From NCBI GenBank assembly GCA_963731045.1, contig CAVSVC010000010.1, positions 3,865-67,864 of the forward strand: 64,000 nt of DNA, read 5' to 3'. The DNA comes from an uncultured delta proteobacterium (GTDB lineage: Bacteria; Desulfobacterota; BSN033; UBA1163). The translations under genes and the position numbers were made by a program. Below, piece by piece: positions 7,902 to 49,189 of the stretch; position 1 is the first letter of the stretch, and each line of letters begins with the position of its first letter. A model generated the notes under the pieces. That model searched no databases. It saw only the letters and a program-made list of their open reading frames with translations, and was not told where the DNA came from.

Positions 7902-9089
7902 ATGGATTCAAACGTGTCCCGGGATTTTCGAGAAAGCTCTGTCAATGTATCAAAAGGTAGGAACGCCTACGCCACGACACGGAGGGCGATAGAGAAATTT
8001 CCTTTGCCTGATCTCCGGGGCCGAAAGGTCCTGGTCAAACCGAACGCAGCCCGGCTCGCCCTCCCCGGCAGCGGTATCACAACACATCCACTTGTCGTCA
8101 GAGCGATCATCGATCACCTCAGAGGCAGAGGAGCCGAAAGGATCGCCATCGGGGAGAGCTGCATCTTTGGAGTGGACGCCCGGGAGGCCTTCTCCTCGAC
8201 CGGGATGAAGAAGGTCTCCGAAGAGTCAGAGGTCGAGCTGATCGATCTGGACCGGGGGGACTTCCGGGAGATAAACATCCCCGGAGGAACTGTTCTTAAG
8301 AAGATCAAAGTGTCGGCCTTCTTGAACGAGTTTGATTTCATCATCTCCGTCCCCGTCATGAAAACACATATGCATACCGGGGTGACGCTGAGCATCAAGA
8401 ATATGAAGGGAGTGCTCTGGCGAAGAGAAAAGGCCAGGCTTCATCAGCTCCGTTCGAACAGAAGAATTACGAAGGGGGACAAGGAACTCGATGTGGCCAT
8501 TTCGGATATGGCAATCGTCCTCCGGCCCGATCTGGCCGTGATCGACGGAACGGTGGGAATGGAAGGGATGGGACCGGCCTACGGACGTCCCAAAGAGATG
8601 GGGATCGTCGTTATCGGCAACAACGGGTTTTCCGCAGATGCCGTTGCCGCCCGTCTGATGGGGTTGGACCCTGCGACGGTCCCTCATCTTCGATTATCCG
8701 CCGAAAAAGGGTTGGGAGAGATCCGGCTCGAAAAGCTTTCCATCACCCCCGAGGACTTCCTGAAGTGGGAGAACCCTTTCGCCCTCCCTCCGACGAAGCT
8801 CTCCATCCCGTACCCGGAGATCGTGGTCCACGACGAAGGCTCCTGCAGCGCCTGTCTTGCCACCCTGCTGGTCTTTCTTCAACATGACCATTCCGGCCTG
8901 ACGGACTACCGCCTGGAGGACGGGAAGACCCACCTTGGCATTGGAAAACATCTGAGGGACTGTCCGAAAGGAACGATTCTGATCGGAAACTGTACCGCAG
9001 GAATCAAGAAAAAGGGAATCTTTGTTCAGGGCTGTCCGCCTGTGGCCTCGCAGATACGGGATGCCCTTTCCAGAAAGATTTCCAGGTGA
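7902..9089 (+). CDS. DUF362 domain protein
   Basis: KVLVKPNAARLALPGSGITTHPLVVRAIIDHLRGRGAERIAIGES is the typical DUF362 N-terminal core. There is a C-terminal Cys cluster; 395 aa intact. Confidence 0.7.
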   Translation: MDSNVSRDFRESSVNVSKGRNAYATTRRAIEKFPLPDLRGRKVLVKPNAARLALPGSGITTHPLVVRAIIDHLRGRGAERIAIGESCIFGVDAREAFSSTGMKKVSEESEVELIDLDRGDFREINIPGGTVLKKIKVSAFLNEFDFIISVPVMKTHMHTGVTLSIKNMKGVLWRREKARLHQLRSNRRITKGDKELDVAISDMAIVLRPDLAVIDGTVGMEGMGPAYGRPKEMGIVVIGNNGFSADAVAARLMGLDPATVPHLRLSAEKGLGEIRLEKLSITPEDFLKWENPFALPPTKLSIPYPEIVVHDEGSCSACLATLLVFLQHDHSGLTDYRLEDGKTHLGIGKHLRDCPKGTILIGNCTAGIKKKGIFVQGCPPVASQIRDALSRKISR

Positions 9090-9130
9090 TCCCTCAGAAG
9101 CCGCAAAAGAATGGGTCCTATATCTCTTTT

Positions 9131-9288
9131 CCCGGGAGGGCGGGGCGGTTTCCGAAACTTTAGAATGCGAGTTTGTTGAAAAAGTCATTTTTCAGCAGTC
9201 TGCGACTCAGAGTTTCTACGCAGCCAGCTCCGTCTCCCGGGATAAGGCTTTCGCTCGAAAGTTTTCCAACCACCCGCATCCTCTCGGG
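9131..9288. repeat. MITE-like element, family 1, copy 2
   Basis: Left end cccgggagggcggggcggtttccgaaactttagaatgcg (9131..9169) and right end ctcgaaagttttccaaccacccgcatcctctcggg (9254..9288) match the two ends of 2983..3146. The interior is unrelated. Confidence 0.6.
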
Positions 9289-9362
9289 CAAAGACTTTTT
9301 CAAGTTTTGGTCTTTTCGCATCTTTCGCACTTTGAAGGGTTATATGTTTCCGGAAATTCTTC

Positions 9363-9391
9363 TTGACAGGAGATTTTCGTCGTGTTAAGTA
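9363..9391 (+). promoter_or_regulatory. Candidate sigma70 promoter of the aro leader
   Basis: TTGACA 9363..9368, a 17-nt spacer, TGt then TAAGTA 9386..9391 (extended -10). It lies ~27 nt upstream of the leader ATG. Confidence 0.4.
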
Positions 9392-9417
9392 ATATTTTAA
9401 TTGTTGTTGGAGAAGAG

Positions 9418-9513
9418 ATGGATCAGCTTCGTTTCACCGATTTCAGCCGTGGGTATTATTTTTACTGGTATTTTTACGCCGGGGTCTACCCACGGGTGAC
9501 GGCTGATCCTTAA
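9418..9513 (+). CDS. Aromatic-rich leader peptide (31 aa) of the aro operon
   Basis: GGAG 9409..9412, ATG 9418. Sequence MDQLRFTDFSRGYYFYWYFYAGVYPRVTADP*, with eight consecutive aromatic codons at 9454..9477. It is followed by an attenuator structure. Confidence 0.75.
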   Translation: MDQLRFTDFSRGYYFYWYFYAGVYPRVTADP

Positions 9514-9575
9514 CCAGGATATTAGCCAGTCAGAAGCCGTGGGTAGATCGAATCTACCCGCGGCTTTTTTATTTT
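9445..9575 (+). promoter_or_regulatory. Four-segment transcription attenuator
   Basis: Segments 9447-9455, 9484-9495, 9537-9548 and 9553-9564 can pair 1:2, 2:3 or 3:4. The pairs were counted by hand. Confidence 0.7.
9536..9575 (+). terminator. Intrinsic terminator of the aro attenuator
   Basis: GCCGTGGGTAGAT-cgaa-TCTACCCGCGGC forms a 12-bp stem, followed by TTTTTTATTTT. Confidence 0.8.
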
Positions 9576-9633
9576 GGGCCGTGGGGAATCCTCCTCACGG
9601 CTTTTTTTATTTCAAAGAAAGGAGGAAAGAGCC

Positions 9634-10435
9634 ATGATCGGAAAGAGAATTCGACTGGAGCGCATCATCAACAGAGAGACGGGAAAGACGGTGATCGTCC
9701 CCATGGATCACGGTGTGACCCTCGGACCGGTTGCCGGGTTGATCGATCTGCCGGAGACCGTCAACGCCGTGGCAAACGGAGGAGCCAATGCCTTCGTGGT
9801 CCACAAGGGCATGGCCGAGGCCGGTCACAGGGGAAGAGGAAAAGACGTGGGGCTGATCATCCACCTCTCCGCGAGCACGCAGATGTCGCCTGATCCGACC
9901 TCCAAAACCATGGTGTGCACCGTGGAAGAGGCCATCAAGCTGGGGGCCGATGCGGTATCCATCCATGTGAACCTCGGGGCCGAAGATGAGACGATCGATG
10001 CTCCATGACCTGGGTCAAGCAGGCAGGGTTGCGATGGAATGGGGCATGCCGCTTCTCGCCATGATGTACACGAGGGGACCCCATGTCAAGAATGAATACG
10101 ATGTGAAGCTGGTGAAACATGCCGCCCGTGTGGGAGCGGAACTCGGAGCGGATATCGTGAAGGTGGTCTATACGGGATCGGTCGAAAGCTTCCGGGAGGT
10201 GGTGGAAGGATGTTTTGTCCCTGTGGTCATCGCGGGCGGGGAGAAGATGGGAAACGACGAAGATATCGTCGAGATGGTCAAGGGGGCCATGGCGGCAGGC
10301 GCCTCGGGCGTCTCCATCGGCAGAAACGTTTTTCAGCATAAAGACCCGGAGAAGATCGTACAGACCCTCAGCAGGATCGTCCACAGTGGCGGTACGGCTG
10401 AAGAAAGGGTGAGGAAGTTCGGGGTGATCGGATGA
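9634..10435 (+). pseudogene. 2-amino-3,7-dideoxy-D-threo-hept-6-ulosonate (ADH) synthase, AroA'-type class I aldolase; one frameshift near 9985
   Basis: AAGGAGG lies before ATG 9634. DhnA/FbaB-family sequence ([11 protein letters not shown]..., ...VKVVYTGS..., ...SIGRNVFQH) sits directly upstream of DHQ synthase II. Confidence 0.8.
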
Positions 10436-11424
10436 AAAAGATCTGGGTCAAGGCCATCCCCTGGGAAAAGGAACTCGCCATGGTCGCCCTGGAATGCGGG
10501 GCCGATGCCCTCTGGGTTCCCGCCGGAATGGGACAGGAAGTGAAGAAGATGGGCTTCATTCCTACCGTGTCCGAGGATGGCGATCTCGTCTTCGGCCGCG
10601 ATGTGGTGGTCAAAGAGATCCGGGAGAAGAAAGACGAAGAGGAGATTCTTGCGTTGAGTCTTTCGAAGAAGGTCGTCGTCAGAGGGGGGGATTGGATGAT
10701 CATCCCCCTCGAAAACCTGCTGAGCAGGACGAAGAATCTCTTCGTCGAAATCCATGACCTGAAGGAAGGCCGGACAGCGCTGAACATTCTTGAAAAGGGG
10801 GTTGACGGCGTTGTGATCGACAACCCTGATCCCGATGCCGTTCGCGGAATGCTCCATGCCCTCAGGGCCGGCAACCAGAGGATCGGCCTCCTCACGGCCA
10901 GGATCAAACGAATCGAGCCCCTCGGGATGGGAGACCGGGTCTGCGTGGATACGTGCTCTGCCATGGCATTGGGCGAAGGGATGCTGGTCGGCAACAGCAG
11001 CCAGTCCCTCTTTCTCGTTCACTCGGAGAGTGTCGAAAACCCCTTTGTCAACACCAGGCCTTTCCGGGTCAATGCCGGACCGGTACACGCCTATCTGCGC
11101 ATGGAGAACGGAGAGACCCGGTATCTCTCGGAGGTGAAGTCCGGCGATCAGGTCCTGGTCGTGAATTTTGAAGGGACGAGCTATCCGGCCGTCGTGGGAA
11201 GGGCCAAGGTGGAGCGGAGGCCGCTGGTCCTGGTGGAAGCTGAAGAAAAAGGCGGCACCTTCTCGGTCATCCTCCAGAACGCCGAAACGATCAGGCTCAC
11301 CGCCCCTTCCGGCAAGGCGGTTTCGCTGGTCGATCTCAAAGAGGGAAGCGAGGTCCTGGTCTGCCGGGAAGAGGCAGGAAGGCATTTCGGGGTCAAGATC
11401 GATGAGACGATTATCGAAAAGTGA
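10432..11424 (+). CDS. 3-dehydroquinate synthase II (archaeal type, AroB')
   Basis: 330-aa intact ORF MKKIWVKAIPWEKELAMVALECGADALWVP...VDTCSAMALGEGMLVGNSS...FRVNAGPVHAY, characteristic of DHQS-II. Its start overlaps the previous stop. Confidence 0.85.
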   Translation: MKKIWVKAIPWEKELAMVALECGADALWVPAGMGQEVKKMGFIPTVSEDGDLVFGRDVVVKEIREKKDEEEILALSLSKKVVVRGGDWMIIPLENLLSRTKNLFVEIHDLKEGRTALNILEKGVDGVVIDNPDPDAVRGMLHALRAGNQRIGLLTARIKRIEPLGMGDRVCVDTCSAMALGEGMLVGNSSQSLFLVHSESVENPFVNTRPFRVNAGPVHAYLRMENGETRYLSEVKSGDQVLVVNFEGTSYPAVVGRAKVERRPLVLVEAEEKGGTFSVILQNAETIRLTAPSGKAVSLVDLKEGSEVLVCREEAGRHFGVKIDETIIEK

Positions 11425-12096
11425 ACGCCCGGAGAAGATCTGTGTCCCCATGGTCGAGACAACCACGGCCATGGCGCTCAGGGCGGTCAGGAGAAGCCGG
11501 CCGGGTGGCTGACCTGGTCGAGCTGCGCCTCGATTATCTGAAGCAGCCCGAATGGGAACCTCTCCTCGTCAACAGACCGAAGCCTGTCATTGTCACCTAC
11601 CGGCGGAGCGACGAGGGAGGCAGATCCGGAGAAGAGGACGAAAGGAGGATCCGGATTCTGAAGGAGGCGGTCGATCTGGGGGCTGATTATGTGGACGTGG
11701 AAATGAGGAGCAGGAGGTCGCTGATTCAGGACCTGATCGAAAACAGGAAGGCAACGGAGGTCATTCTCTCCTTCCACGATTTTCGCGGAACAGCCTCTCA
11801 TCAGGAACTGAGAAGGCTCTTTGAGCGGATGATCCGTCTGGGAGCGGATGTCGTGAAGATCGTCACCTTTGCCCGGTCCTGGGAAGACAATGCGAAGACC
11901 CTGTTGCTTATTCCTTACGCCCTTAAGAGAAAGAAGAGAATCGTCACGTTCTGCATGGGGGAGAAGGGGAAGATGAGCCGCGTCTTCTCTCCCTTGATGG
12001 GCGCAGCCTGGACCTATGCCTCCCTTGCCGCAAACAGGGCCTCTGCGCCAGGCCAGCTGACCGCCGGGCAGATGAAGGACGATCTGGGAGAGGTTG
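11421..12096 (+). pseudogene. aroD: Type I 3-dehydroquinate dehydratase, at least 2 frameshifts
   Basis: GTGA start/stop overlap with the upstream gene. KICVPMVETTTAMAL (another frame) then ADLVELRLDYL...SFHDF...VKIVTFA...TFCMGEKG. Confidence 0.75.
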
Positions 12097-12097
12097 A

Positions 12098-12963
12098 GAT
12101 GATCGATCTCGAGAACAGAGCTTTATGGGATCATCGGAAACCCGGTGCGGCACAGTCTGAGCCCGGTCATCCATAACAGTGCCTTCAAAAGGATGGGATG
12201 GAATGCGGTCTACCTGGCCTTTGAAGTGAGCAGATCTCAGGGAAGCCATGGCAGGAATCCGGGGACTGGGAATTCGGGGGGTCAGCATCACCCTTCCCTT
12301 CAAGACCGAAGTCATTCCCTTCCTCGATCGGAGGTCGAGGGGATCGCGGGAAAGATCAAGGCCGTCAACACGATCGTCAACGAGGAGGGAAGGCTCATCG
12401 GCTACAACACCGATTGGCAGCGGGGCCGTCGAAGGCCTTGGAAGGAAAAGGTTGACTTGAAAGGAAAGAAGGTCTTGCTCCTCGGAGCAGGCGGAACAGC
12501 CCGGGCCATCGGCTTCGGACTGAGAGAAAAAGGCTGCGAGCTCACCATTGTCAATCGGTCACCGGAGAAAGGGAACGCACTGGCAAAGGAACTGGGATGC
12601 GTTTTCAAGCCCTTATCCTCCCTGGATGGAACCGGAGGCGGACGTGCTGATCAATGCGACGTCCGTGGGCATGCATCCCAACATCGGAGAAAGCCCCGTT
12701 CCGAAGAAGTGCCTGGAGAAGAGGGATGACGGTGATGGATATCGTCTATTGGCCTCTTCAGAACCAGGCTCCTCGGCGAGGCCGAGGAGCAGGGATGTCA
12801 GACGATCGACGGACTGGAGATGCTTGCCCGCCAGGGAGCAGGCCAGGTTGAGATCTGGACGGGGACGAAGCCGGATATCGGTCAGATCAAAGAAGACCTT
12901 CTGAAGGGCATTGAAGCGGGGAGCAAAACGGCATCGAGAGCTCAAATTGAAAAGAATGATTGA
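12098..12963 (+). pseudogene. aroE: Shikimate dehydrogenase, at least 3 frameshifts
   Basis: The fragments ELYGIIGNPVRHSLSPVIHNSAF, GIRGVSITLPFKTEVIPFLD, AVNTIVNEEGRLIGYNTDW, VLLLGAGGTARAI and ADVLINATSVGM are spread over three frames. Confidence 0.75.
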
Positions 12964-14222
12964 GATCAGGCCGCTTCATCATTGCGACTCCGTGGTGACC
13001 ATCCACGGGTCAAAGAGCTACACCCACAGAGCCCTCATCGTCTCTGCCCTCGCCGATGGGGAATCGGTCCTGGTCAACGCCCTGCGAAGCGAGGATACGG
13101 AGCATACCCTCCGGGGACTGCGGCAGATTGGGATCCCGATCTTCTGAGGAACAGGAAGGACTCCATGTAGCGGGTCAGGGGGGAAAACTGGAGGGGAGGA
13201 CAGGAAGTTTTTTTTCTGGGAAATTCCGGAACCTCCATGCGGTTTCTGACCGCTCTGGCGGCGCTCAAAAAGGGACGCACCCTTCTGGACGGAAATGAAC
13301 GGATGAGAAAACGGCCCATGGCAGATCTTCTGGAAGGGCCTGAGGGCATTGGGTGTCAAGGCCGGATCCGTCCATGGAGAACGGGTGCCCGCCCGTGACG
13401 ATGGAGTCCCAGGGCCTTAAGGGAGGGACGGCGAGGATCAGAGGAGACGAGAGCAGCCAGTTTCTGTCCGCCCTTCTCGATGGTCGCTCCCTATGCCCGG
13501 GAAGACGTCAGCGTGGAGGTCACCGGCAATCTGTCTTCCCGGCCTTATGTGGACATCACCCTGGATGTGATGTCCGCCTTTGGGGTCGAAGTTCAGAATG
13601 AAGGAGATCAGTCTTTCTTTGTCCGGAGCAGGACAGAACTATCTCCCCCGGGACATACCGTGTTGAAGGAGATGCCTCGAATGCCTCCTATTTCTTTGCG
13701 GCGGCGGCCATCACACGGGGAAGGGTGAGGGTGGAAAACTTCCGGCCGGACTCCGTCCAGGGAGATACAGGATTCCTTGACGTTCTGGAGACGAATGGGC
13801 TGTGAGGTCAGCCCGGGGAGATGACTGGGCCGAACTCCTCGGGAAAGCGCTCCACGGAATCGAGATGGATATGAATGCCATGCCCGATCTCGTCCCGACC
13901 CTCGCAGTTACTGCGGCCTTTGCAGAGGGAAAGACCGTGATTCAAAACATCGGCCATCTTCGTTTCAAGGAGTCGGACCGGCTCAGGGCTCTCGCAGGAG
14001 AACTGAAGAAGATGGGCGTTCGTGTCGAAGAGGGAAAAGACTGGCTGGCCATTGAAGGGGGAAAAGCCCACGGGGCGAGAGATCGAAACCCATGACGACC
14101 ACCGCCTCGCCATGAGCTTTGCCATTGCAGGACTGGCCGTTCCCGGGATAAAGATCAAGGGAGAGCGGTGCGTGGATAAATCCTTTCCGGATTTCTGGGA
14201 GACCCTTCAAAGGCTGTATTAG
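12956..14222 (+). pseudogene. aroA: EPSP synthase (3-phosphoshikimate 1-carboxyvinyltransferase), at least 5 frameshifts
   Basis: The fragments IHGSKSYTHRALIVSALADGES, GDESSQFLSALL, SSRPYVDITLDVM, MPDLVPTLAVTAAFAEG...RFKESDRL and DDHRLAMSFAIAGL appear in order but in changing frames. Confidence 0.8.
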
Positions 14223-14362
14223 GGGTGATCGGTGAGAGTGAGAGTGAGGGTTACGGGTTGCAAGTGCGGGTTGCGGATTGCGAACTTCGGAGGTATCGAA
14301 CCTGCATCTCGTGAACACGAAAACTGACTTCGCTCCGGTAGATCTTAAGTTTTGGTGCTTTG

Positions 14363-14898
14363 ATGAACATCGTCTTCATCGGATACCGGGGCTCCGGAAA
14401 AAGTGAGGTGGGAAGAAGACTTGGCCTCTCGCCTGCAGATGAACTTCGTCGACACGGACGACCTCATCCAGAACCGTCATGGAATGACGATCAGCGAGGA
14501 TCGTGGAAACCCATGGATGGAGTCATTTCCGGACCCTGGAGAAGGAGATGATCTAGAAATTTCCGAACCGGGATCAGCAGGTCATCGCAGCGGGCGGCGG
14601 GATCGTTCTCGATCCTGGGAACGTGGCGGCCCTGAAGAAAGGGGATTGATCATCTGGCTGAAGGCGGACAGGGATACGTCTTCTCAAGAGAATGGCACAA
14701 GGATCCCCGAACCGTTCCCAGCGACCCCCCTGAACGGGAAAGGGAGCCTGGAAGAACTGGAGGAGGTGTTGACGTTCCGGAATCCTTTTTATGAAGAGGC
14801 AGCCGAGGCCAGCCTCGACACCTCGCTCCTGGATGTGGAAGCAGTTGTCGAGACGAGTCCTTTTTCCATCATCCGGGAAAGGAGTGGGAAGACCTTAA
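14363..14898 (+). pseudogene. aroK: Shikimate kinase, at least 2 frameshifts
   Basis: MNIVFIGYRGSGKSEVGRRL (P-loop) then ASRLQMNFVDTDDLIQNRHGMTISE in another frame. It ends at TAA 14896, next to the aroC ATG. Confidence 0.7.
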
Positions 14899-14899
14899 A

Positions 14900-15969
14900 A
14901 TGGGAGGAAATTCATTCGGAATCCTCTTCAGGATCACCACCTGGGGGGAATCGCACGGAAAGGCCCTGGGCGTCGTCATTGACGGCTGTCCTCCAGGGAT
15001 GGACCTTTCCGATGAAGATATTCAGAGAGAGCTCGACCGAAGAAGGCCCGGCCAGGGAAAGGGAACGAGTCCGAGAGCGGAGAAGGACCGGCCGGAGATC
15101 CTTTCAGGGATCTTCGAGGGAAAAACAACCGGAACGCCCATTTCTCTCCTGGTCAGGAATGAGGATGCCGATTCGAGTTCTTACGACGAAATCAGGGAAA
15201 TCTTCCGGCCCGGCCATGCCGATTACACCTATCAGGCAAAGTATGGCGTGAGGGACCACCGGGGAGGAGGCAGGGCATCCGCGCGGGAGACGGTTGCAAG
15301 GGTGGCTGCAGGAGCAGTGGCCGAAAGATCCTCGGAAAAGAGGGAATCACCGTCCTCGCCTATACGATGGAACTCGGAGGGATCTCGGCCGGCAGAATCG
15401 ATGAAGAAGAGATCGAAAGAAACTTTCTTCGATGCCCCGACAGGAACGCGGCCGCTGCAATGGAAAGGAAGATCGAAGAGATGAAGCGCCGGGGTGACAC
15501 CCTGGGAGGGATCGTGGAGATCCTTGTCCGGGGCTGTCCTCCGGGACTGGGAGAGCCTGTCTTCGACAAGCTGGAAGCGGATCTGGCCAAGGCCCTGATG
15601 AGCATCGGCGCCGTCCGGGGAGTGGAGGTGGGGGCAGGCTTCGGGGCCGCCCGCATGCTGGGGTCCCAGTGCAATGATCCCATCGGACCGGGCGGATTTG
15701 AGAAGAACGATGCCGGCGGAATTCTGGGCGGCATATCCAATGGAGAAGAGATTCGGCTCCGTGTGGCGGTGAAACCGATTCCGTCCATCGCCCTGGAGCA
15801 GAACACGGTCGATCACTCAGGGAAGCCCGTCTCCTTTCGGATCGAAGGCCGGCACGATGTCTCCGCCATCCCCCGGATCAACCCGGTCTGTGAGGCGATG
15901 GTCGCGATCGTTCTGGTTGACCATCTTCTCAGACAGAAAGGAAACGAGAAACAAGGGAAGTTGGAATGA
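14900..15969 (+). pseudogene. aroC: Chorismate synthase, one frameshift near 15330
   Basis: [35 protein letters not shown] then ...GDTLGGIVE...KPIPSI...GRHD. Confidence 0.85.
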
Positions 15970-16083
15970 TGGAATGTTGGAATAATGGAATAATGGGTGG
16001 AGATCCTGCCCCGCAACATTGATTTCTTCCATTTGTTTTTTGGGTTTTCCCAGTATTCCATCATTCCACTATTCCATTATTCC
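15963..16083. repeat. Long imperfect hairpin built from octamer arrays (GGAATNNT x4 and inverted ATTCC array)
   Basis: ggaatgatggaatgttggaataatggaataatggg (15963..15997) faces cccagtattccatcattccactattccattattcc (16049..16083). About 30 of 35 positions are complementary, with a ~51-nt loop. Confidence 0.7.
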
Positions 16084-16141
16084 AGTGGTGAACGGGGACA
16101 ATTGGATGTCTTGCACACAGCTCAGGGAAAAAAGGGGCACG

Positions 16142-17229
16142 ATGAAAGAAGGACGGCAACGGAAGAGATTCAGTCTCTTCGGCAGAGGATCGAGGCGGTA
16201 GATGATGAGATGCTTCAGCTCTTGAACCATCGGGCGGGGATCGTTCAGGAAGTGGGCAGAGTCAAATCGGAGTTGGAGATGGCCTATTACAGTCCGGGCA
16301 GGGAGGAAGAGATCTTTCAGCGCCTGGAAGACGGAGAATCCCGGCCCTTTTCCCCGGTGGGCGGTCCGATCCGTCTTCCGGGAGATCATCTCAGCCTGCC
16401 GTTCCTTAGAGGCGGAATTGACCGTGGCCTTCTTCGGTCCTCAGGCGACCTTCACACACGGGGCCTGTATTCAACAATTTCGGGAGTTCCGTCCGGATGG
16501 ACCCGGAAAACACGATCCAGGCCGTATTTGAATCCGTGGAGCGCGGGAAGGCGGACTACGGTGTGGTGCCCATAGAGAATTCAACGGAAGGTCCGGTGAG
16601 TCAGACCTTGGATATGTTCGTTAATTCGCAGGTCAAGATCTGCGGAGAGATCTTCACCAAAATCTCCCATGACCTGATCTCCAGAAGCGGGAACCCTGCC
16701 GAGATCCGGAAGATCTGTTCTCATCCTCAGGCCCTGGGCCAGTGCCGGGAGTGGCTGAGAAAGAACTTGCCCCATGTTCAGCTTGAAGAAGCGGGCAGCA
16801 CGGCCGGGGCGGCCCAACAGGCTGCGGAGAATCCGGAAACGGCCGCCATTGCCGGTTCGCTCGCCGCTCGGGTGTACGGACTGACGACGGTCGCCTCCCA
16901 GATCGAAGACAACCCGAACAACTATACGCGTTTCTTCGTCCTCGGCCGGCAGAGCGCCGAAAAGACGGGACGGGACAAGACCTCGATCCTCCTCTCGATC
17001 TCTCATGCCCCGGGAACGCTCTCCAGGGTCCTTCAGGTCTTCAACCAGAAGGGATCAACCTGACCAGGATCGAATCCCGGCCCACGAAGGGAAAGCCCTG
17101 GGAATACCTGTTCTTTATCGATCTGGAGGGCCATGCGGCCGATCCGCCGGTCGCGGAATCCCTCGATCGGCTGAAGGGGAGGTGCTTTTTCTCAAGCTCC
17201 TGGGCTCCTATCCTCAGAGTTCACCCTGA
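16142..17229 (+). pseudogene. pheA: Bifunctional chorismate mutase / prephenate dehydratase (P-protein), at least 3 frameshifts
   Basis: CM helix EEIQSLRQRIEAVDDEMLQLLNHRA, PDT domain GVVPIENSTEGPV...HPQALGQC and ACT domain TRIESRPTKGKPWEYLFFIDLEGH. The start codon assignment is uncertain. Confidence 0.8.
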
Positions 17230-23613: not shown

Positions 23614-23643
23614 TTGACAAGTCCCCCTGTGATTTGTTAAACA
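23614..23643 (+). promoter_or_regulatory. Candidate promoter of the trp leader
   Basis: TTGACA 23614-23619, an 18-nt spacer ending in TGt, then TAAACA 23638-23643. It sits back to back with the minus-strand -35, 10 bp away. Confidence 0.4.
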
Positions 23644-23674
23644 GCATGTAATAAGGAGTTGTAAGAGGACCGCA

Positions 23675-23755
23675 GTGGAAGATATTTTAAGATTGAAACA
23701 AGGGAACTGGTGGCGCTGGGCAAACATAGAGGAGGCTTGCCCCGTGCTGCATTAA
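23675..23755 (+). CDS. trpL: Trp-rich leader peptide (26 aa) of the trp operon
   Basis: AAGAGGA 23663-23669, GTG 23675. Sequence (M)EDILRLKQGNWWRWANIEEACPVLH*, with three Trp codons at 23708-23719. The alternative start TTG 23693 is possible. Confidence 0.7.
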   Translation: MEDILRLKQGNWWRWANIEEACPVLH

Positions 23756-23771
23756 CCGTTTGAAGTGAAAC

Positions 23772-23811
23772 AAGGCCATGGGCGGCTTCCGGGTCCCCCA
23801 TGGCCTTTTTT
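23772..23811 (+). terminator. Intrinsic terminator of the trp attenuator
   Basis: AAGGCCATGGG...CCCATGGCCTT forms an 11-bp stem, followed by a T-run (TTTTTTATTT). Confidence 0.75.
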
Positions 23812-23842
23812 ATTTCTGCCTTTTCAAAGGCAGACCGCGTTC

Positions 23843-23877
23843 AAAAAAGGCTATGGATCATTTCCATAGCCTTTTTT
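23843..23877. terminator. Second, symmetric hairpin (A6-stem-T6) downstream of the trp attenuator
   Basis: AAAAAA-GGCTATGGA-tcatt-TCCATAGCC-TTTTTT. It could terminate in either direction. Confidence 0.55.
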
Positions 23878-23894
23878 GTTTGGTTGGGAAACAA

Positions 23895-36426: not shown

Positions 36427-37320
36427 ATGAGTCTTTTCAGCCAGCTTCTTCAATTCCTTTTTACCGGGTTAACGATCGGGGCGATCTATGCCATGGTCGG
36501 CCTGGGGTTCAACATCATCTATAACGCCACGACCATCATCAATCTGGCCCAGGGAGAATTTGTCATGTTCGGGGGATTGATCATGGTCTTTTTTACCGCG
36601 GTGCTGAAACTTCCCCTCCTCATCGCATTCCCTCTCACCATCATCGCGGTGACGGTTGTGGGGGTCCTCTTCGAACGCCTCGCCATTCGGCCGTTGAGGA
36701 ACGCCTCCCTGTTGACGCTGATTATCGTCACGATTGCAGCGTCGATTCTCTTCCGGGGCGTGGCCATGTTCGTCTGGGGAAAGGACCCCTATATGCTTCC
36801 TCCTTTCACCTCCGGGAGCCCGGTGATGATTGGAGGAGCGGTGATCATGCTTCAGACCTTCTGGGTCCTGGGCACGGCCCTGGCCATCGTCATCCTGATG
36901 GCTCTCTTTTTTGGAAAAACGATCGTCGGAAAAGCCATGAGCGCCTGTTCATTCAATCCCACGGCCGCAAGCCTGGTGGGCATCCCGGTGAGGAAAATGA
37001 TCCTTCTCTCCTTTGCCCTGAGCGCCGGCCTGGGTGCGGTGGCAGGGATCGTCATCACACCCATCTCCCTGATGGATTACGATCGGGGTCCCATGCTGGC
37101 GGTCAAAGGATTCTGTGCGGCGGTCCTGGGAGGCCTGGGTGTCGGCTACGGGGCGATCGCCGGAGGTTTCATCCTCGGGATCCTCGAATCCATGACCGCG
37201 GGCCTGGTTCATTCCGGATTCAAAGATGCGATCGCCCTGGTGATCCTCCTGTTCATTCTCTGCCTCAAACCGAGTGGCGTGTTCGGAAGCAAAGAACTCA
37301 ACAAGATAAAGAAATTCTAA
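36427..37320 (+). CDS. livH: Branched-chain amino-acid ABC permease (LivH type)
   Basis: MSLFSQLLQFLFTGLTIGAIYAMVGLGFNIIYNATTIINLAQGEF. ATG 36427 is preferred over the longer track ORF. Confidence 0.85.
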   Translation: MSLFSQLLQFLFTGLTIGAIYAMVGLGFNIIYNATTIINLAQGEFVMFGGLIMVFFTAVLKLPLLIAFPLTIIAVTVVGVLFERLAIRPLRNASLLTLIIVTIAASILFRGVAMFVWGKDPYMLPPFTSGSPVMIGGAVIMLQTFWVLGTALAIVILMALFFGKTIVGKAMSACSFNPTAASLVGIPVRKMILLSFALSAGLGAVAGIVITPISLMDYDRGPMLAVKGFCAAVLGGLGVGYGAIAGGFILGILESMTAGLVHSGFKDAIALVILLFILCLKPSGVFGSKELNKIKKF

Positions 37321-47410: not shown

Positions 47411-49189
47411 TCACCAGCTCCCTCCTCCGCCGCCTCCGAAGCCGCCGCCTGAGGAGCCTCCTCCGCCCGAACCTCCCCCACCGCCGCTTCCTCCTTCACT
47501 GCTTCGTGGAGCTGAGAACATGGCGGACGATAGATCCGACGTGACGGAGCTCATCGAGTGGGTAAACCCGTAGGGGCTGAAGGTCCTGAATCCCGACGGA
47601 GAGGCGTACCAGTCGGGCGGGTCCTGATAGATTCCTTCAAAAGCTTTTGCCCAGTTGTCGGCCACCCCGAGGCAGAGGGCGTAAGGCAGGAATCTGGAGA
47701 AGAGGGTTGCATCCCCCATCCGTTCCAGTCTATCCTTCTCTGCTCGATTCAGAAATTCCTGAAAACCCAGAACGTCCATGCGGGCAGAGGCTCCGGATTT
47801 CGTCTTGGCAGGCATAACACCGGCAAATCCTATCACAGGAATCCCTGTCAAGACGCCCGCGATAATACACTTGACGGAAGGATCGCCTGACAGCACGGCA
47901 AAGATAAGGCTGCCGATAATCATGACGAGAAATCCCGCGATCGCATAGGATTGTCTCACCTTCTCAGGATTGCTGAGAAAATACTTCTTACGAACCAGAT
48001 CTCCGTAGAGTGTCCGCTTCAACAGACTCAGATGGACATAGAACCTGTTTTTCAACTGTGAGACAAGAATCCCGGGCAGCGGGGATGGAAACAGGCTATT
48101 CATCAGCTCCGTCTCAAAGGGACTCAATGCCTGGTCGTGGTCTTTTGTTTTCTTAAGATAGAAATCCTTCGAATCGGTGAGCCATCCCTCCTTCCGGGTC
48201 TCCTCAATCTGAAGAAATCCTTTGACAGCCAGACCCAAGATGGTGGACGTGATATCCCTCGGGTCGAGTTTCTCATCCAGAAGGGTCCCCACCTCGGCGG
48301 GCGTCAAGGGGGTGCTCCCAAACCTGGGGGGCTCGTACATCACTGTGACGGACTCTCTCACGGCCGGATCCCTTCCCTTCTTCCTCCATCTCAAACCCAT
48401 GAACACAAACGCAGCAATGGGGAAGAGAAAGACCCAGTTCTCCTTCAGATCAATCGCCCACAGGGCCTTCTTCCATTTCGAGGGAGGAAACACCAGGCCT
48501 TTATCCCAGCTGAGGGCGATGGTAAACCCCTCCCCGATCCCAAGGTTTCTTTTTGTCTGGAATTTGCACCTGTTCTCGTGGGGCTCCACCGAGCATTCCG
48601 CCTGGTTTGAACCATAAACCCCGGTGTAACAGGCATGCTGAAGTTTCTCGCTTTTTTTCTTCAGGGAAAGAAAGACATCTGCGGACGCTTCTTCAATGGG
48701 AGCCTTCCAGGCATTTCCGGTGACGTTCCAGTAGAGCTCATCGTAATCGTTCAGAAAGAGGATCGCGTTTTCAACCTGATACGTGATGATGTAGGTCTGA
48801 CGGCCGTCCACATATCGCTTCGGATCCCCGATCCGGACATGGATCACGGATCCCGTCTTCTTTACCTGGTACTTCCACTTCTTCCCGGTCCCGTCGACAA
48901 CGGAAAGGACCCGGGTGGGCGTCCGCATCGCCTCCCCCATCTCGGTCTCATACTTGAAAGGGATTTCACGGTAGATCCCGTGCCGGGGACGGTCAAAGGT
49001 AACGTCAATCCTTTCTTCCACAAGAAAGGATGAATCCTCACGGACCGTAATGTCGGAGTGAAACCGGTTGATGGTGAAATACTGGGCAAAAGCCGGAGAA
49101 AGAAGAAAGACAAACAAAAGGCTGAGGCTCAGGCTGAGGTTGAGCAAAACCCGGAAAGGGAGACGATGGAGCTTTCCACAACGTTTCAT
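47411..49189 (-). CDS. DUF2207 membrane protein with Gly-rich C-terminus
   Basis: Signal peptide, INRFHSDITVREDSSFLVEERIDVTFDRPRHGIYREIP, TM block and a GGGGSGGGGSSGGGFGGGGGGSW tail. Confidence 0.8.
   Translation of the reverse strand: MKRCGKLHRLPFRVLLNLSLSLSLLFVFLLSPAFAQYFTINRFHSDITVREDSSFLVEERIDVTFDRPRHGIYREIPFKYETEMGEAMRTPTRVLSVVDGTGKKWKYQVKKTGSVIHVRIGDPKRYVDGRQTYIITYQVENAILFLNDYDELYWNVTGNAWKAPIEEASADVFLSLKKKSEKLQHACYTGVYGSNQAECSVEPHENRCKFQTKRNLGIGEGFTIALSWDKGLVFPPSKWKKALWAIDLKENWVFLFPIAAFVFMGLRWRKKGRDPAVRESVTVMYEPPRFGSTPLTPAEVGTLLDEKLDPRDITSTILGLAVKGFLQIEETRKEGWLTDSKDFYLKKTKDHDQALSPFETELMNSLFPSPLPGILVSQLKNRFYVHLSLLKRTLYGDLVRKKYFLSNPEKVRQSYAIAGFLVMIIGSLIFAVLSGDPSVKCIIAGVLTGIPVIGFAGVMPAKTKSGASARMDVLGFQEFLNRAEKDRLERMGDATLFSRFLPYALCLGVADNWAKAFEGIYQDPPDWYASPSGFRTFSPYGFTHSMSSVTSDLSSAMFSAPRSSEGGSGGGGGSGGGGSSGGGFGGGGGGSW

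Follow-up and report, generated by a model that had tools for sequence, protein, structure and literature searches.

How does a bacterium that enters aromatic biosynthesis through an ADH-synthase-type aldolase and 3-dehydroquinate synthase II (DHQS-II) adjust its aro operon to the supply of aromatic amino acids? We address this question at a locus within a 64,000-nt stretch of contig CAVSVC010000010.1 from an uncultured delta proteobacterium (the whole stretch is called the window below), where an aro operon is preceded by a short open reading frame (ORF) rich in aromatic codons and by a series of hairpins. Read from its sequence and its conservation, this element is very probably a ribosome-mediated transcription attenuator of the aro operon, and the operon is most likely switched on only when aromatic amino acids are scarce. 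An earlier note on this DNA had proposed a four-segment attenuator with trpL/pheL-type logic that reads Tyr, Phe and Trp at once. That logic is supported by folding, by conservation and by compensatory changes in the helix S1:S2. The competing pairings of the proposal also hold, but its four segments and single terminator give way to six segments and two tandem terminators.

The leader ORF translates as MDQLRFTDFSRGYYFYWYFYAGVYPRVTADP*, and its Shine-Dalgarno sequence, 5-nt spacer, ATG 9418, 31 codons, aromatic run YYFYWYFY, segments S1 to S4 and T6AT4 tract all lie where the earlier note had put them (Table 1). A window of eight aromatic codons out of eight occurs a single time in the six frames of the 64-kb window, where base composition leads one to expect 6.5e-5 occurrences, and a purine-rich GGTGGAAG/AAGGTGAAAA box is found in relatives at the position equivalent to the leader's Shine-Dalgarno sequence. 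The leader features and the aromatic run are more than chance. The run fills the S1:S2 hairpin loop and shares nucleotides with S1 at the 3′ end of that segment.

The RNA forms a six-segment chain, in which the pairings 1:2 (with a further helix, P0), 3:4 and 5:6 alternate with 2:3 (with hairpin H) and 4:5; the chain reaches six segments and two terminators because a second terminator, P0 and H are added to S1 to S4. S1:S2 joins 9443-9455 to 9487-9499 (13 positions, one G-G mismatch) and S3:S4 joins 9534-9548 to 9552-9566 (15 pairs, one of them G-U), both longer than first counted, whereas the earlier count for S2:S3 was right (9484-9495 with 9537-9548; 11 Watson-Crick pairs and one G-U at 9484/9548, with 9485-9495:9537-9547 perfect). 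The second terminator-like hairpin (9576-9603, with T7AT3) directly follows the first terminator. The 11-mer AGCCGTGGGTA, correctly recognized before as common to S1 and S3 (9445-9455 and 9535-9545), has a third copy at 82% at 9577-9587, and a repeat finder identifies all six segments as copies of one inverted-repeat motif. Since S5 resembles S1 and S3, and S6 resembles S2 and S4, S4 is able to pair with S5 (9555-9564 with 9578-9587). P0 is an 8-bp helix, 9420-9427:9502-9509, that encloses the whole ORF around S1:S2, and H draws S2 and S3 together, using the GCUGAUCC strand in place of P0. Copies of GCCGTGGG at 36958 and 61915 lie within coding sequence and were rejected as attenuators.

The leader is far more stably folded than its base composition requires: the minimum free energy of 9395-9615 is -93.8 kcal/mol, compared with -60.4 +/- 4.6 kcal/mol for shuffled sequences (z = -7.34). 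Among the individual pairings, we calculated -24.1 kcal/mol for S1:S2, -37.9 kcal/mol for S1:S2 with P0 and -35.9 kcal/mol for S2:S3 with H, and further -25.3 kcal/mol for S3:S4, -18.3 kcal/mol for S4:S5 and -19.9 kcal/mol for S5:S6. The full-length minimum-energy fold combines S1:S4 with S2:S3; we regard it as a thermodynamic artefact of the repeated motif and not as a co-transcriptional state.

Table 1. Features of the aro leader, of the operon behind it and of two further leaders in the window
Feature	Position	Strand	Remarks
-35-like hexamer TTGACA	9363-9368	+	putative; sequence reading and conservation
Extended -10-like element TGTTAAGTA	9383-9391	+	putative, from conservation; 17 nt past the -35-like hexamer
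Shine-Dalgarno GGAG of leader ORF	9409-9412	+	5-nt spacer to ATG 9418
Leader ORF, 31 codons + TAA	9418-9513	+	stop at 9511-9513; similarly built ORF in 21 class A loci
P0, 5′ strand GGAUCAGC	9420-9427	+	codons 1-4, just past AUG; pairs with 9502-9509
S1, 5′ arm of anti-antiterminator	9443-9455	+	pairs with 9487-9499
Regulatory run YYFYWYFY, codons 13-20	9454-9477	+	5 Tyr, 2 Phe, 1 Trp
S2, partner of S1 or S3	9484-9499	+	inside ORF (codons 23-27)
Hairpin H, between S2 and S3	9498-9531	+	stop codon in loop; belongs to S2:S3 fold
P0, 3′ strand GCUGAUCC	9502-9509	+	just before stop; also 5′ arm of hairpin H
S3, 5′ arm of terminator 1 and 3′ arm of antiterminator 1	9534-9548	+	
S4, 3′ arm of terminator 1	9552-9566	+	alternative partner S5
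T-run of terminator 1, T6AT4	9565-9575	+	
S5, 5′ arm of terminator 2	9576-9587	+	alternative partner S4; third copy of S1/S3 motif
S6, 3′ arm of terminator 2	9592-9603	+	
T-run of terminator 2, T7AT3	9602-9612	+	
Shine-Dalgarno AGGAGG and ATG 9634 of first structural gene	9620-9636	+	
ADH-synthase-type (DhnA-family) aldolase gene	9634-10435	+	split by 1-nt insertion near 9992; both halves match NCBIfam NF005556 / TIGR01949
3-Dehydroquinate synthase II gene	10432-11424	+	NF002627, 446.5 bits (cut-off 392)
aroD, aroE, EPSP synthase, shikimate kinase, chorismate synthase, chorismate mutase/prephenate dehydratase (pheA)	11421-17229	+	remaining operon
Trp-only leader ORF VEDILRLKQGNWWRWANIEEACPVLH	23675-23755 (TAA)	+	GTG start; run NWWRW; before trpE (ATG 24040)
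Phe/Tyr-only leader ORF MMAGKEQGRFFYFGYFYFRSGSASTA	ATG 23547 to stop 23467	-	no Trp; region 23600-23371

We next consider whether the element recurs where the same genes recur. A DHQS-II protein scan of species-representative genomes, together with a scan of metagenomes for the aldolase N-terminus, yielded 160 loci, and nearly all named loci among them belong to Thermodesulfobacteriota. The earlier note had suggested a search of orthologous aro operons for short aromatic ORFs; counting at least six aromatic codons out of eight within 300 nt before the aldolase gene, we found such a window in 75 of the 128 loci with at least 300 nt upstream, compared with 0/121 in a same-sized stretch inside the gene and 1/121 in the reverse complement. 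There are 77 ATG-started leader ORFs, 70 of which contain at least one Trp codon. Cultured species are among the carriers: loci L031 and L054 bear the names Desulfobacca acetoxidans and Desulfosudis (Desulfococcus) oleivorans. Using a fold-based terminator finder, we detected at least one hairpin with a T-run between leader and aldolase in 76 of these 77 loci, and at least two in 36.

The leader peptides fall into at least three classes, which have only the aromatic run in common. The window's class, class A, reads MDQL...FYWFYYA.VYPL.LADR. Class B reads ...YYFSYYYF.G..CASTFK., with a conserved tail (GCCUCGACUUUUAAAAG) that pairs with the Shine-Dalgarno region and with one bulged terminator; class C reads ..SG.YYFYYWYFF.TGLPGVR and in most cases has two tandem terminators. 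Classes B and C occur among loci L014-L160 (for example L025, L106, L062 and L052) with the same aldolase gene downstream, and a terminator stem GCCGYGG...CCRCGGC is common to all leader classes.

An alignment of 21 class A sequences, the closest relatives, shows that the ORF, P0, S1 to S6 and both T-runs are retained in 21/21. Both conformers are conserved: the pairs of the terminator conformer form in 86.6% of cases, compared with 36-55% when the partners are slid by 1-3 columns, and those of the antiterminator conformer (S2:S3 and S4:S5) in 87.7%, compared with 32-51% when slid. The alternative pairing that the earlier note had expected in relatives is thus present. For S2:S3 taken separately, 91% of positions are paired (slid controls, for the whole conformer, reach at most 51%). 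The terminator conformer has two-sided changes at 11 pairs, and six of them are compensatory changes in S1:S2; at one pair, the window has a unique C-G where 17 relatives have A-U. RNAalifold, given no structure, predicted P0, S1:S2, S3:S4 and S5:S6.

The rate of change differs among the strands according to the number of their partners. The S3 core is invariant at 10 of 12 positions and S1 at 1 of 10; S3 is nearly invariant because it has two partners, whereas S1 and S6, with one partner each, vary more. The 3′ strand of P0, GCUGAUCC, is invariant at seven of its eight positions. A structure like hairpin H, with differing 3′ partners, is present in about 16 of the 21 relatives.

These parts suggest the following sequence of events. 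The transcription start is probably about 20 nt before ATG 9418, and a ribosome would then read the 31-codon leader; we infer both that translation is coupled to transcription and that the device responds to charged tRNA. With an ample supply of charged tRNA-Tyr, tRNA-Phe and tRNA-Trp, the ribosome would cross the aromatic codons and S2 and reach the stop codon. The earlier note had let the ribosome at the stop codon cover S2, but its footprint of about 9496-9525 misses the S2 core (9484-9495), and S2 must therefore be hidden while codons 21-31 are being read and afterwards by S1, which would re-pair with it as P0, in its presumed role, closes the ORF. S3:S4 would then form and RNA polymerase would halt at the first T-run (9565-9575), and polymerases that leak past it may be caught by the second terminator (S5:S6, T-run 9602-9612). 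When the ribosome at the stop codon is represented by masking 9496-9525, the best fold is indeed S1:S2 with S3:S4.

A shortage of any one of the three charged tRNAs would stall the ribosome within YYFYW(YFY). Because the stalled ribosome prevents S1:S2, S2 would pair with S3, perhaps helped by H. The fold agrees with the earlier claim that a stall at the aromatic codons frees S2 for S3: when 9439-9483 is masked, as for a ribosome with codons 13-17 in its A site, S2:S3 is the best structure before S4 has been transcribed. The free S4 could then pair with S5 in a relay, in which case neither terminator would form and the genes from the aldolase through pheA would be transcribed.

Several results weigh against this reading and restrict it. 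Once S4 is present, the thermodynamic balance is on the side of S3:S4 even if a ribosome is stalled; consequently, read-through must be kinetic, like that of classical attenuators. If the ribosome stalled at codons 18-20, it would sit on the 5′ end of S2, and the effective sensor codons are therefore the first five, YYFYW. Variation in S2:S3 and S4:S5 is one-sided (A-U to G-U), and two-sided covariation is essentially absent there. The base pairs at one informative S2/S3 position across classes A and C (AU 10, GU 14, GC 9, AC 1) are consistent with pairing and only weakly non-random. P0 is conserved and shows zero covariation. About 40% of the related loci have no aromatic leader. A strict sigma-70 consensus scan of 9000-10000 returned no promoter and rejected the TTGACA/TAAGTA site. 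Finally, the base-level quality of the window is imperfect, since many coding genes are frameshifted.

The conservation of the peptide itself could be read in another way, namely that the short ORF makes an aromatic peptide that is functional in its own right (a membrane peptide, or a trans regulator like peTrpL), with the hairpins as its terminators. Trans-acting leader peptides exist, such as peTrpL of Sinorhizobium meliloti (PMC7298713), and both the length of the leader ORF and parts of its peptide sequence are conserved. However, these parts coincide with RNA segments: S1, and in the conserved tail S2 and P0, whose nucleotides are kept in L094-L096 though the frame differs. Within the run, Phe and Tyr interchange freely with the aromatic character retained, and the three peptide classes have nothing else in common. 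We conclude that RNA pairing and aromatic codons are constrained, and not a particular peptide, because the frame-shifted tail is conserved as nucleotides and Phe and Tyr are swapped. Moreover, simple terminators need neither S1 nor S2 complementary to S3, yet both are found in 21/21 relatives. A functional peptide in place of attenuation is therefore highly improbable, though a trans role on top of attenuation is possible. The Trp codon is kept in 19/21 relatives; it is lost (CGG) in L089 and L091, while L083 has FYWFWW and L084 has Trp codons only (NWWWWN). Because the codon mix drifts in this way between close relatives, the weighting of the three amino acids is lineage-specific.

The same terminator and antiterminator logic could also serve a sensor other than the ribosome, since it is independent of the sensor type: an uncharged tRNA (T-box-like), a small-molecule riboswitch or an RNA-binding protein (TRAP-like). 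T-boxes and TRAP do control aromatic operons in other phyla (cited in PMC1262725). At this locus, however, searches with Rfam found neither a T-box nor any other family in 8800-10200 at E-values up to 10, nor in the whole window at gathering score, and arrays of (G/U)AG repeats are absent. Matches below threshold to the trpB motif (30 bits compared with 59) and to ar7 (26 compared with 60) are caused by two of the hairpins and were rejected as chance. Besides the helices, one feature alone is both conserved and strongly enriched: a run of aromatic codons that can be translated, having its own start codon and Shine-Dalgarno sequence. In addition, the window holds two more leaders whose runs match their operons, such as Trp codons before trpE. 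A non-ribosomal sensor is accordingly very unlikely, and we keep to the translating ribosome as the sensor.

Conservation also points to putative promoter elements ahead of the leader. TAAGTA follows TTGACA (9363-9368) at 17-nt spacing, with TG two bases ahead of TAAGTA. In 20/21 class A relatives, CTTGACA is located 45-75 nt 5′ of the leader ATG, and CTTGACA-N15/16-TGTGTTAnA, at equal spacing to the leader, likewise occurs in 20/21. A promoter-like motif, TTGAC(A/T)-N15-17-TGTTAAnA, precedes all three leaders of the window (9363-9391 +; 23614-23640 +; 23600-23575 -) and those of 20/21 class A relatives. That this shared motif fails the strict sigma-70 scan may reflect the promoter preferences of the lineage. 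The empty scan, and the fact that tandem terminators are common at the ends of transcription units, speak for a third alternative, in which the two hairpins would constitutively end transcription of the upstream gene (7902-9089), the aldolase operon would have an unseen promoter of its own behind them and the short ORF would be incidental. This alternative is the least credible of all, given that the hairpins lie 445-515 nt beyond that gene's stop with the conserved TTGACA...TGTTA element between, that the 22 nt from the second T-run to the aldolase ATG 9634 hold a Shine-Dalgarno sequence as their sole recognizable signal and therefore leave no room for a promoter, that leader and hairpins stay with the aldolase in 21/21 class A loci where the upstream gene is present in just two other loci (L011 and L092), and that the aromatic run is far beyond chance. 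Because the upstream neighbour changes across loci, the leader travels with the aldolase gene.

The operon behind the leader comprises the common aromatic pathway and pheA. Profile matches agree with the earlier placement of the leader: the first two genes of the aro operon behind it encode an ADH-synthase-type aldolase and DHQS-II (Table 1). Several of its genes are split between frames: the aldolase, EPSP synthase (at least three frames), shikimate kinase, chorismate synthase and pheA. In the aldolase gene, the indel near 9992 is a single extra base, placed by comparison with the 91%-identical relative L081. These frameshifts reflect either indel errors in the assembly or pseudogenes and decaying genes. 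Despite them, the leader ORF is intact and in register with its relatives.

Two further leaders lie in the window, one on each strand, and for this reason leader-peptide attenuation is taken to be in regular use in this organism. The Trp-only leader (region 23614-23880, +) has a TTGACA...TGTTAAA promoter-like motif and a Shine-Dalgarno sequence at 23663-23669, and is followed by two hairpins with T-runs (23774-23815 and 23849-23877). The Phe/Tyr-only leader is followed by a hairpin without a T-run (23455-23420) and then by a terminator (23405-23381) with T8 (to 23373). Downstream of it are an MBL-fold (Lactamase_B/ODP) gene at 23320-22301 (-) and a 502-amino-acid protein for which a Pfam search returned no match. 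This leader is kept in L163 (2780-2875), ahead of a 75%-identical orthologue of the MBL-fold gene, but the orthologue in Syntrophus gentianae (L161) has no such leader in front of it. The regulatory codon mix appears to match the branch that is controlled, as the Trp codons before trpE show. Elsewhere in the window, at 48858-48884 (+), there is another window with six aromatic codons out of eight, FFTWYFHF.

How does the aro leader compare with known systems? Its principle is classic leader-peptide attenuation and not a new mechanism. A short ORF with its own Shine-Dalgarno sequence and start codon lies in the 5′ leader of a biosynthetic operon, with analogous ORFs in 77 loci, and a cluster of codons for end-product amino acids precedes a shikimate/Phe operon. 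Two intrinsic terminators separate the leader ORF from the first structural gene. The antiterminator S2:S3, supported by conservation and wobble changes, shares a strand with the terminator, and the anti-antiterminator S1:S2 could be disrupted by a ribosome stalled at the regulatory codons.

In trpL and pheL, both the lack of translation and full translation lead to termination. These Escherichia coli leaders consist of a short ORF with a run of end-product codons, 1:2, 2:3 and 3:4 helices and a terminator before the first gene (summarised in PMC11802643, PMC3082878). The window's leader is like them in its ORF with a regulatory run, its competing helices and its intrinsic terminator. It differs in that there is no similarity of sequence or structure (neither the Trp_leader nor the Phe_leader model of Rfam matches), in its mixed codons for three amino acids, which are sited in the loop of the 1:2 hairpin, in S2 lying inside the ORF where segment 2 of trpL follows the stop codon, in having two terminators and two antiterminators, and in controlling the common pathway and not one terminal branch. 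The hisL model put forward by Johnston et al. in 1980 is said to have six segments, A-F, with A:B, C:D and E:F alternating with B:C and D:E. The hisL leaders of Salmonella and E. coli thus resemble the window's leader in their six-segment chain and in an uninterrupted regulatory run (seven His codons there, eight aromatic codons here). In hisL, however, E:F is the only terminator, whereas both S3:S4 and S5:S6 have T-runs here; consequently, antitermination has to be passed along the chain beyond two terminators. The window's leader has no match to the Rfam His_leader model.

Sensing of several amino acids by one leader is familiar from enterobacteria, where ilvL (ilvGMEDA) senses Ile, Val and Leu and thrL senses Thr and Ile via mixed regulatory codons, each with a single terminator. 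The window's leader shares the principle with ilvL and thrL and differs from them in its amino acids and in its second terminator, and has no sequence relationship with them. The closest analogue is the aroR leader of Corynebacterium glutamicum, a leader-peptide attenuator with mixed aromatic codons at the entry to the common aromatic pathway. It precedes aroF, a DAHP synthase gene (Neshat et al. 2014), contains Phe-Tyr-Phe codons, and is reported to respond to Phe and not to Tyr (PMC11802643). In contrast to the window's leader, aroR has three regulatory codons and no Trp, belongs to another phylum and precedes a classical DAHP synthase in place of ADH synthase and DHQS-II. The two are functional analogues, as compared through the published description of aroR.

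The Rfam leader families (Trp_leader, Phe_leader, His_leader, Leu_leader and Thr_leader) gave no match in 8800-10200 at E-values up to 10 and none in the whole window at gathering score. A full-text literature search, which did not cover the cross-phylum attenuator survey of Lopatovskaya, Seliverstov and Lyubetsky 2010 (Mol Biol 44:128; cited in PMC4833913), found no aromatic leader described before aroA′/aroB′ or in delta-proteobacteria, and PMC545781, PMC2965389, PMC1262725 and PMC4833913 yielded no description of such a leader. The element thus appears to be a leader family that is new, though its mechanism is well known; it is kept widely across Thermodesulfobacteriota and has no counterpart in Rfam. 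What sets it apart is the run of eight mixed Tyr, Phe and Trp codons, together with the conserved tandem terminators and their possible relay.

We tentatively extend this picture to a three-tier regulon with a relay design in many Thermodesulfobacteriota, a proposal that we hold to be rather doubtful. In such a regulon, a Tyr/Phe/Trp leader would act on the ADH synthase/DHQS-II entry and the common pathway, a Trp-only leader on trp and a Phe/Tyr-only leader on the MBL-fold protein, and in the aro and trp leaders one stall would disable two tandem terminators (2:3 frees S4, and 4:5 blocks 5:6). If true, the relay would be a design not described before, giving very low basal expression and a filter for persistent starvation, and the MBL-fold gene would be a candidate for an unrecognized Phe- or Tyr-linked function. 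In any case, the Phe/Tyr leader marks the MBL-fold protein for study.

One leader that reads Tyr, Phe and Trp beside branch-specific leaders in the same genome would be a natural example of hierarchical attenuation, and the conserved terminator pair with its possible S4:S5 relay offers a testable design variation. As a leader family beyond Rfam, it could, together with its sister classes, help to annotate the aro operons of Thermodesulfobacteriota across hundreds of genomes and metagenome bins. The leader is also evidence, from regulation, for the DhnA-type aldolase and DHQ synthase II as the working entry to aromatic amino-acid synthesis in these bacteria, and against their being mis-annotated sugar enzymes.

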